Positions 493 through 2,498 of a stretch of 37,206 nt of DNA are shown here, in pieces. Position numbers and translations under genes: made by a program. The notes below the pieces were generated by a model. It was given only the letters and a program-made list of their open reading frames with translations. It did not search any database and was not told where the DNA came from. Location: IMG/VR virus record IMGVR_UViG_2737471853_000011, positions 1 to 37,206 of that record; one strand, 5' to 3'. Position 1 is the stretch's first letter. Each line of letters starts with the position of its first letter. Source of the DNA: a virus (taxonomy: Duplodnaviria; Heunggongvirae; Uroviricota; Caudoviricetes).

Positions 493-1061
493 TTTCTGCC
501 GCATGCGGGTGTTGCATAAAACGTGCTACGTTCCTTTATCGACAGGTCAGGTCACCGCTCACCCGCCGACGAGAAAGCAACACTGACATGCTAAAGCAAA
601 AAATAGATGAATAAGTTGAGTTGTGCATATGTAGCCTGACCGTCACAAAGTATATGGTGTCTGTACCAGTAAGATGATGGCCGGACTCTTTAAAAACGAG
701 CTGACCTGCACAATACAGGATGGACTTAGCAATGGCTGCTCCTGGCACATAGCAGACCAGAGACACTGGCGTAAAGCCATGGAGGATCGGTGGGAGGAGG
801 TAAAAATCCTCTCATGCAAAAAATACGCAAAATCGATAACAGTTGGAAATCATTCAATACTCGCACTATCGGAAGTTCACCAGCCAGTCGTAGCACGTTC
901 TTGCATATGACGTGGCTACGGGTTTCGAGACCGACCCGATCATCAAACGAAACATAAAATTAGCTCACATTATGAGGAAAGGTATCTTTTTGCGCTATGT
1001 AAATTCAAAGGGTTAGCCTCATTTTCCCGATGGCTTTCTCAACACTACTAGTTGTGAGCCC

Positions 1062-1886
1062 TTGCAATGTTCATTAATATACGTCTCACAAATAATTCAC
1101 AGATATTGCAAAATGGATATTACTGAGTTTCCTTCTGGAGTAATTGAACACCTTGGCTGGTATGTATACCGATTGATTGATCCTAGGGACGGAAGCACCT
1201 TCTATGTAGGGAAAGGCAAAGGTAACCGCGTATTTGCCCATATGCGCGGTGAAGTGGCAGCGGCTGATGATGACGAGTTACTGAGCAACAAGCTAAAGCA
1301 AATCAGAGAAATAAGATTAGCGGGACTTGAAGTTATCCATGTCATCCATCGACATGGAATGACTGATGAAAAGACGGCGTACGAAGTTGAAGCAGCACTT
1401 ATTGATGCCTACCCTGGGTTAACGAATATCATGAATGGTGCTGGCAGCAATGAATTCGGCGCCGCGCATGTCAAAGAGTTGATAGCAACATATCAACCCG
1501 AAACCATAACATTTCATCATAAAGCATTAATGATTTCCGTTAACAGAAGTGCAAAGGATTCAGAGCTTTATGATGCGGTTCGATTTAGCTGGCGCATTAA
1601 TGTCTCTCGCGCCAGCCAAGCAGAAGTTATTCTTGCTACTGTAAGGGGAATCGTTCGAGGGGTTTTCATTGCTGATAAATGGCTCAAATCAACACGTGAA
1701 AATTTCCCTACGATGAAATACTGGGACGAGGATCCTGACTTTGAGGCAACACAAAGTTCTCGCTATGGTTTTGAAGGTCGAGAAGCCCCACCTGAAATAG
1801 CAAATCTTTATCTTGGAAAAAAAATACCAGATGAATTAAGAAAAAAAGGAGCTATGTCCCCGGTCCGTTACTCACCTAATTTTTGA
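1062..1886 (+). CDS. GIY-YIG nuclease-domain protein with uncharacterised C-terminal half (start may be ATG 1113)
   Basis: N-terminus has [27 protein letters not shown] followed by a conserved Glu (YEVEAAL), the GIY-YIG pattern; moderately AT-rich. Confidence 0.65.
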
Positions 1887-1943
1887 GTCTTTAAGTGATA
1901 AGCATAAACCGCAGCACGATCTTGCATACGACGTGCTACGGTT

Positions 1944-2498
1944 TCATTTATCTCCGACCGGAAACTTCTTATACAGTGTCGATATACCAACATCATAGAT
2001 GATCGCCACCTTCTGGCGAGGAACGCCTGATGCAATTAATCGCCCGGCCTGCGCCCATTGTTCTGGTGTAAGTTTGGGACGACGTCCACCAATTCGTCCC
2101 TGTGCGCGAGCAGCTTCCAGTCCAGCTTTTGTTCGTTCAACAATCAGTTCTCGTTCCATTTCAGCCAGGGCACCCATCACATGAAAGAAAAAACGCCCCA
2201 TCGGTGTGCTGGTATCAATAGCATCCGTCAGGCTGCGAAAATTAACGCCACGTTCGCGCAACTCCTCAACCAGAATGACCAGATGCCGCATACTACGCCC
2301 TAGCCGATCCAGCTTCCAGACAACCAGAGTGTCACCTGCCGATAATGTCCTGAGCAGTTTTTTCAGTCCCGGCCTTTCGGACTTTGTACCGCTTATCTTG
2401 TCTTCAAAAATCAGCTCGCATCCTGCACAGTTCAGCGCATTACGTTGTAGATCTGTGTTCTGGTCATTTGTTGACACACGTACATAGCCAATAAGCAT
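1944..2498 (-). CDS. Serine DNA invertase (Gin/Pin/Hin/Cin family)
   Basis: Begins MLIGYVRVSTNDQ with catalytic Ser and a C-terminal HTH; lies beside an inverted-repeat-bounded tail-fibre segment; start chosen at ATG 2498 rather than the ORF-track start 2534. Confidence 0.9.
   Translation of the reverse strand: MLIGYVRVSTNDQNTDLQRNALNCAGCELIFEDKISGTKSERPGLKKLLRTLSAGDTLVVWKLDRLGRSMRHLVILVEELRERGVNFRSLTDAIDTSTPMGRFFFHVMGALAEMERELIVERTKAGLEAARAQGRIGGRRPKLTPEQWAQAGRLIASGVPRQKVAIIYDVGISTLYKKFPVGDK

Follow-up and report, generated by a model that had tools for sequence, protein, structure and literature searches.

The 37,206-nt stretch of Caudoviricetes DNA analysed here in full (IMG/VR record IMGVR_UViG_2737471853_000011, hereafter the window) carries, near its left end, three same-strand copies of a hairpin-forming repeat around a gene for a GIY-YIG nuclease; this repeat family and the gene that it brackets are the subject of the present analysis. 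All three copies that a preliminary description had placed at 511..534, 901..928 and 1921..1945 are present on the plus strand at about those positions: copy 1, a decayed half copy, at 499..540; copy 2 at 888..926, where its hairpin forms the 3' end of a non-coding element of ~100 nt (825-926); and copy 3, a stand-alone hairpin, at 1907..1952 with its flanks included, the repeat unit itself spanning 1909-1945. Between copies 2 and 3 lie a non-coding stretch (927..1112, plus strand) and the cargo gene (1113..1886, plus strand), whose product is a LEM-3-like GIY-YIG nuclease equal to the anti-phage system PD-T4-3; the evidence is a Pfam match (PF22945, 2.4e-14), a PADLOC match (PD-T4-3, 2.2e-140, full length) and Prokaryotic Genome Annotation Pipeline (PGAP) annotation of an identical locus. 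Window positions 340-2540 occur in identical form in E. coli Combat11I9 (NZ_CP021726). PD-T4-3 has been characterised as CMoRE, a type IV restriction endonuclease for DNA containing 5-hydroxymethylcytosine (5hmC) or its glucosylated form (5ghmC), with solved structures (PMC12923530). Beyond the nuclease gene, annotation of the identical locus places pin, a pinE-type DNA invertase gene, on the minus strand (1944..2498), and copy 3 sits, as had been described, between the convergent stops of the two genes, its tail overlapping the pin stop codon (1944-1946). The distance of ~130 bp earlier given from copy 2 to the nuclease open reading frame (ORF) holds for the longest TTG-start ORF (136 bp, to 1062), and does not hold for the annotated ATG, which is 187 bp away at 1113.

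A pattern search of the window returned exact matches to TTGCATANNACGTGCTACG at 512-530 and 1922-1940, whereas chance would give 0.07 matches even with up to three mismatches allowed and none of 100 shuffles gave two; the core of copy 2 (901-921) is the same sequence with one inserted G. The repeat is longer than the ~25 bp first proposed, in that copies 2 and 3 align across 38 nt with a local alignment score of 47, and copies 1 and 3 align over 31 nt with a score of 36, compared with 14 ± 2 for shuffles. A covariance model trained on 54 distinct variants, the window's own three copies among them, scored copies 3, 2 and 1 at 61.3, 58.5 and 25.7 bits in a scan of the 37-kb window, with the next best site at 13.5 bits; the model also picked the reverse strand of copy 3 (25.1 bits) and found no sites in the window beyond these.

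Copies 2 and 3 fold into hairpins with the 13-nt loop recognised earlier, on stems of 10 bp rather than the 6 bp then reported. In copy 2, TCGTAGCACG (888-897) pairs with CGTG-G-CTACGG (911-921), leaving G915 bulged and a loop at 898-910, whilst in copy 3, CCGCAGCACG (1909-1918) pairs with CGTGCTACGG (1932-1941) around a loop at 1919-1931, with a C1912·A1938 mismatch and the possibility of extension by AA/TT. The loop measures 13 nt in the consensus register, and folding programs put one to three weak pairs inside it. At 10 bp and ~70% G+C, the stem gives the stable G+C-rich stem-loop expected of intrinsic terminators: the fold of copy 3 reaches -17.4 kcal/mol on the plus strand (z = -3.2) and -23.6 kcal/mol on the minus strand (z = -3.4), and a 61-nt stretch around copy 2, including a second short stem downstream, reaches -25 kcal/mol (z = -3.6). 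Among the 54 variants, most of which were retrieved by a pattern fixing the loop and four right-arm bases and are close relatives, 93.9% of cells form standard pairs in the 10-bp stem, and four of the ten stem pairs have changed on both sides (for example CCGCAG/CTGCGG, CCGTAG/CTACGG and CTGCGG/CCGCAG). The observed covariation score and the count of doubly changed cells were matched in 0 of 500 shuffles, and in a control with the partner slid by one to three columns pairing fell to 17-49%.

These substitutions bear directly on one option of the preliminary description, namely that the repeats are binding sites for a regulator, acting as double-stranded DNA operators for a phage or host protein. 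In its favour, the loop core TTGCATA is well conserved and a strong promoter-like site stands just upstream of copy 1; however, changes in the arms preserve pairing and not sequence, a pattern pointing to single-stranded folding, copies 2 and 3 are found at gene 3' ends and not at promoters, and no candidate regulator is linked to the repeats. Outside the pattern-selected set, moreover, the loop varies at most positions (lambda TTCCTGCATACGA and TTATTTCATACAA, K-12 TTCTTGCATAAGG, others TCATGCATACGT), and because these pattern-independent copies vary there we do not read the loop as specially constrained. We consider operator function highly improbable.

The three copies are not equivalent, copy 1 being a degenerate relic. 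What it retains is the loop's 3' half, the right arm and a T-rich tail (TTCCTTTATC); the palindrome CCGCATGCGG stands where the left arm would be, and the fold of copy 1 does not surpass that of shuffles (z = -0.1). The relic sits between the stop of a ydfV-like gene (536, minus strand) and a flxA-like gene, and is also found between ydfV and flxA in the Qin prophage of K-12 (1646213-1646228). No Term-seq 3' end is listed near this K-12 counterpart, and no relative shows a homology breakpoint at copy 1. The promoter reported at 465..492, just upstream of copy 1 on the plus strand, was borne out as a promoter-like site, TTGACA-16-AATAAT, with an 11/12 consensus match that is kept in K-12 Qin.

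Copy 2, by comparison, belongs to a far larger conserved unit, the upstream ~60 nt of which (825..887, plus strand; consensus ACGTAAAATCGGTAACGGCTGGAAATCATTCAATACTCGCACTATCGAAAGTTCACCAGCCAG) were delimited by alignments and by BLAST distribution. A BLAST query of window positions 810-960 matched 5386 of 5426 complete E. coli genomes, at a median of three places per genome and ~15,800 places in all; the same query matched 191 phage records, including lambda, HK97, Stx phages and three Salmonella phages. Throughout the aligned relatives the ~100-nt unit terminates in the hairpin, with homology ending at the last stem base, and its upstream edge is most commonly adjoined by a DinI-like gene's stop codon. 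The lambda copy lies at 24162-24273 on the strand transcribed leftward, an interval that we take to fall between the coding sequences ea31 and ea47, and the HK97 copy (20943-21041) follows the annotated sib site directly. In K-12, Qin contains a full copy at its left end (1632481-1632569) and Rac a hairpin-only copy (1434727-1434764). In a contig scan with TGGAAATCATTCAAYAC, most of the matches listed were chance or lambda contamination and the real copies among them came from Escherichia and Shigella only, so that the taxonomic range is rough. A lambda-identical element with its flank was present in seven loci from assemblies labelled Chromatiales, Pseudoxanthomonas, Chromatium, Kitasatospora, Pseudomonas and Enterococcus, almost certainly as lambda control-DNA contamination. 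A diverged copy of the whole element was also observed in the ecpE-ykgJ spacer of the same strain (locus L001, 3925-4017), away from annotated phage genes; it carries several compensatory stem changes (CCGCGGTACG/TGTACCGCTG) and recurs in another E. coli and in Shigella flexneri.

In several genomes, RefSeq or PGAP annotation places partial 'capsid protein' pseudogenes over the element, on its reverse strand (window ~822-908, minus strand; L001 18483-18569; L004 7576-7647; L005 4002-4067), calls that probably arose as an artefact, a spurious ORF family having been propagated through annotation. Were they taken at face value, the element would be the remnant of a protein-coding gene. This is scarcely credible, since the annotated fragments are always incomplete (22-29 codons), single-base indels between copies, in the bulge column and in the A-run, would break any frame, and conservation tracks the hairpin rather than codons.

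Conservation of the upstream 60 nt, which matches that of the hairpin, suggests another alternative: that the ~100-nt element is a small regulatory RNA (sRNA), either stand-alone or derived from a 3' untranslated region (UTR), with the hairpin as terminator/Hfq-binding module, the conserved single-stranded stretch AAAUCAUUCAAUACUCGCACUAUCG as target-pairing seed, and copies 1 and 3 as terminator fragments only. A -10-like hexamer occurs at the 5' edge of conservation (TAAAAT, CAAAAT, TATAAT or TAGAAT, with A2 and T6 invariant), a possible 5' stem, GGCUGG/CCAGCC, becomes GGCUGAU/AUCAGCC in one lineage, the K-12 hairpin coincides with an orphan RNA 3' end that has no annotated gene upstream, and CssrB provides a precedent for an RNA using this hairpin. 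Yet no usable -35 lies upstream of the hexamer (one or two of six matches in 31 of 34 contexts), and a promoter belonging to the element itself was rejected on this ground, the -10-like hexamer being kept without a -35. The compensatory change in the long-range 5' stem is confined to that single lineage, and RNAalifold recovers the terminal hairpin only, with no consensus structure in the upstream 60 nt. A RIL-seq-based prediction lists only the neighbouring K-12 regions ydfK.5UTR and uspF.ynaE.IGR, with very low sRNA scores, and no Rfam family reaches threshold over the element, tRNA being the only family found at gathering thresholds over the window. Cappable-seq tables contain no entry for a transcription start site of the K-12 Qin copy. 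Weighing both sides, we regard an sRNA as an unlikely identity for the element. The Pas sRNAs of a 2026 preprint were considered as a match and rejected, being unrelated and located in the Q/lysis region.

On the minus strand, copy 3 begins one base past the pin stop codon, which lies within the copy 3 T-tract, and the A-rich 5' flank of this copy together with its TTTCATTTATC tail gives it the appearance of a bidirectional terminator, as do the A-rich 5' flanks of stand-alone copies elsewhere (e.g. ATAAA, GAAAA and TTAAA). Window positions 1910-1966 on the minus strand align to the terminal hairpin of Rfam RF02799, CssrB, at 32.4 bits (E = 5.5e-5). An RNA of ~180 nt, CssrB (chromosome-encoded Shigella sRNA B) was detected on northern blots (Peng et al. 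2011, PMC3071730), and the last ~40 nt of its model, the terminator hairpin, are the reverse complement of our motif, but the match is confined to that hairpin: 129 of the 180 model positions have no counterpart in the window and the gathering score of 76 is not reached. Therefore, as only the hairpin matches and the score is far under gathering, CssrB itself is absent from the window. In the e14 prophage of K-12 (L250, 5240-5347), mcrA, encoding another type IV restriction enzyme, directly follows pinE in the position that PD-T4-3 occupies here, with no hairpin in the spacer.

Among the options first put forward, that of terminator elements gains support from the compensatory stem changes, from the tails that follow the stem, from an RNA 3' end at a K-12 homologue and from the identity of the reverse strand with the CssrB terminator hairpin. 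The tail is mostly TTTY: three or more of the 4 nt next to the stem are T in 39 of the 54 variants. K-12 Term-seq tables list orphan 3' ends at 1632571 and 1632574 on the plus strand, 6-9 nt past the stem of the Qin hairpin (Adams et al. 2021); both lie within ...CGCAGCACGTTCTTGCATAAGGTGTGTCTGCGGTTTTTC, the 1632571 end being at ...GCGGUUUUUC.

Comparison with relatives lacking the nuclease gene indicated that the repeats mark an insertion. In four fetched loci (L118, L019, L078 and L092) the site is empty: it holds a single hairpin, alignable with copy 2 as well as with copy 3, and pin comes directly after it. The window therefore carries a ~1.02-kb insertion consisting of the cargo gene and one hairpin. 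The site is occupied in the window and in five other loci (L017, L043, L044, L075 and L124), and the insert is absent from collinear relatives, as is expected of a moron. Copy 2 is thus the left and copy 3 the right boundary of a PD-T4-3 cassette, and the proposal that the motifs are remnants of cassette boundaries stands for these two copies, given the empty site, the breakpoints and the varied cargo. E. coli genome matches to the 2.2-kb region start or stop at window positions ~916-926, 1914 and 1942-1945; across the fetched loci, the ends of high-scoring segment pairs cluster at 910-929 (72) and 1940-1959 (31), and their starts at 810-829 (46) and 1900-1919 (43), which places these edges at both ends of the element and of copy 3. 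The same insert is found beside other neighbours: in L003 it adjoins a tail-fibre assembly remnant, and in L120 its left flank is different, homology starting precisely behind the position of the hairpin. The 5' non-coding part of the cassette (927..1112) travels with the gene in these among other contexts and presumably holds its own promoter; a consensus promoter scan of 927-1112 found no site past threshold, and by eye a weak TTGTGA-17-TAATAT candidate lies near 1044-1072.

The architecture is not peculiar to this nuclease. In lambda, ea47 lies between a full element (24162-24256) and a stand-alone hairpin (22572-22610), and in another locus an EcoRII restriction-modification pair is flanked by two elements. 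Across loci, more than 15 different sequences follow the hairpin, and the cargo behind it includes PD-T4-3, an SDH-type ClpP-like protease, EcoRII, an S-adenosylmethionine (SAM) methyltransferase, NleG, an IpaH-like NEL ligase, an acyltransferase_3 protein, a DUF4145 protein, nleC and ea47. Self-mobilisation of the GIY-YIG gene as a homing endonuclease was considered and set aside as not needed, unrelated cargo sharing the architecture and the protein being a characterised restriction enzyme. The left arm of copy 3 is of 'C-type' and its right arm of 'A-type', a mixture that fits a crossover inside the hairpin and that stepwise mutation could also yield.

Boundaries of this kind might also arise if the hairpin were a site-specific recombination site, whether an attC-like folded site, a secondary Pin site or the site of an HUH enzyme. 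With cargo flanked on both sides by a directly repeated imperfect palindrome that has an extrahelical base, the arrangement does superficially resemble integron attC, the mobile unit is cargo plus its downstream hairpin, and an invertase gene adjoins copy 3. The Pin crossover sites, however, have another sequence and another location: two inverted copies (2553-2580 and 4373-4393; 21 nt, 90% complementary), containing the AAACC..GGTTT core characteristic of Hin/Gin/Pin sites, flank a ~1.8-kb invertible tail-fibre segment beside pin. The motif copies are direct repeats outside that segment, and not an inverted pair of 26-bp sites (two inverted 12-bp half-sites around a central dinucleotide) on either side of it. 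No invertase adjoins the hairpin in lambda, HK97 and many other carriers, most carriers lack a linked recombinase, no integron integrase, REP-associated tyrosine transposase (RAYT; REP, repetitive extragenic palindrome) or HUH gene was found in any context examined, and the hairpin, at ~35 nt, is shorter than attC. A site-specific recombination site is accordingly very unlikely.

Overall, we favour, at a probability of roughly 60%, the explanation that the motif is a shared and probably bidirectional intrinsic terminator hairpin that also provides a homology patch for the swapping of moron cassettes. The copies would belong to a family of intrinsic (Rho-independent-type) terminators at the accessory end of lambda-like E. 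coli prophages, the 'b region' that lies between the tail-fibre or invertase genes and the attachment site. Copy 2 would terminate a ~100-nt conserved 3' untranslated element that in relatives lies downstream of a dinI-like gene or of sib; copy 3 would be a stand-alone terminator that travels with PD-T4-3 and stops transcription arriving from both the PD-T4-3 and the convergent pin sides; and copy 1 is a decayed relic. The window's own copies probably terminate transcription, and would probably do so bidirectionally. The repeat would serve as a homology patch because nearly identical stretches of ~40 bp stand before and after each cargo gene, in the same place in many phages, and general recombination at the repeat, by RecA or by phage Red-type enzymes, could insert, delete and exchange 'promoter-gene-terminator' moron cassettes. 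About 35-50 bp of homology, the length of this repeat, is enough for phage Red-type systems. On this reading, recombination at the hairpin itself, rather than only in wider flanks, would move the cassettes.

Several observations weigh against this explanation. With regard to termination, the 13-nt loop exceeds the 3-8 nt typical of intrinsic terminators, and a consensus terminator scan (loop 3-8 nt, at least five T in 8) called none of the copies. The U-tracts are short, with tails of GTTTC in copy 2 (922-926), TTTCATTTATC in copy 3 and TTCCTTTATC in copy 1, and 15 of the 54 variants, both lambda copies among them, are without a T-tract. In vivo evidence of an RNA 3' end comes from the K-12 Qin homologue and not from the window copies, and that end could alternatively be a processed end or an exonuclease stop; the 3' end of CssrB was likewise placed by terminator prediction rather than by mapping (PMC3071730). 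A terminator role does not account for the conserved 60 nt upstream of copy 2, and conservation of the loop cannot be judged from closely related variants that were fetched by a pattern. As for the exchange of cassettes, breakpoints at the hairpin edge would also be expected if crossovers occurred anywhere in the flanks, the hairpin then being the last shared sequence.

Known systems provide partial parallels. Lambdoid morons are reportedly promoter-gene-terminator units inserted between neighbouring genes. The locus described here resembles them in having a single accessory gene, with its own hairpin terminator behind it, between genes that are adjacent in other phages, and in carrying lysogenic-conversion, defence or virulence cargo; it differs in that one terminator family is common to many unrelated cargo genes and to the resident site, rather than being idiosyncratic to each moron, and in that the consensus scan found no convincing promoter in the window's cassette. 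The promoter early stem-loop (PeSL) cassettes of T4-type phages recombine through their repeats, whereby the gene between them is shuffled, deleted or circularised (Arbiol et al. 2010, PMC2839356). Here too, short conserved intergenic repeats with a terminator stem-loop lie on both sides of non-essential genes in a plastic region, there are replacement as well as presence/absence polymorphisms, and occupied and empty sites are the leftovers to be expected of such exchanges. In contrast, PeSLs combine a strong early promoter with a stem-loop and belong to virulent T4-type phages, whilst our repeat has no promoter and occurs in temperate lambda-like or Mu-tail prophages, and PeSL sequences show no similarity to the motif.

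The sib/tI retroregulator of lambda is likewise a conserved hairpin, situated just beyond att in the leftward transcription unit to which the element also belongs, and the HK97 element starts right after sib; nevertheless the sequence is different, the lambda element lies 3.3 kb further left, and there is no sign of RNase III processing or of int control. Integron attC sites and REP elements share with the motif their form as imperfect palindromes at gene 3' ends, which in integrons bound mobile single-gene cassettes, but the motif has no IntI or RAYT partner, no R/L boxes and no sequence similarity to them, and its hairpin is shorter than attC. A bolder view of the element would make it either a widespread prophage regulatory RNA from the 3' end of the dinI-like or int transcript, carried by nearly all E. 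coli, or a dedicated docking module through which lambda-like phages capture and exchange single-gene defence and virulence cassettes via excised circles, as a temperate-phage counterpart of T4 PeSLs or attC; we think this distinctly unlikely. Parts of the system are already known, part of the hairpin being in Rfam as the tail of CssrB and the K-12 3' end in a supplementary table. A full-text literature search, which did not extend to most subscription journals, returned no paper with the motif sequence and none in which the element is described as bounding the accessory locus of lambdoid phages.

Other features of the window were noted in passing. The near-consensus sigma-70 promoter-like site at 465-492 points antisense into a 5'-truncated ydfV-like ORF (536-787, minus strand). 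A FlxA-like gene occupies the left edge of the window (1-333, minus strand), and a candidate sigma-28-type promoter, TAAAGATT-N10-GCCGATAG, was recognised by eye just upstream of it (about 345-380, minus strand). At the opposite end, past the phage genes of the terminase side, lies a tRNA gene (35766-35838, minus strand; 71.8 bits), which may be a site of prophage integration.

These findings change no concept, as both terminators flanking morons and repeat-guided modular shuffling are already established. They do, however, assign a likely role to a conserved lambda sequence that had gone unannotated and to an 'orphan' RNA 3' end of K-12. Being short, non-coding and nearly universal, the element can serve as a landmark for the accessory locus of lambda-like prophages in E. 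coli, and searches anchored on it retrieve the cargo directly, which even in the small sample considered here included a type IV restriction enzyme (PD-T4-3/CMoRE), the EcoRII restriction-modification system, type III effectors (NleG, NleC and an IpaH-like ligase), an O-antigen-type acyltransferase and unknowns such as lambda ea47.

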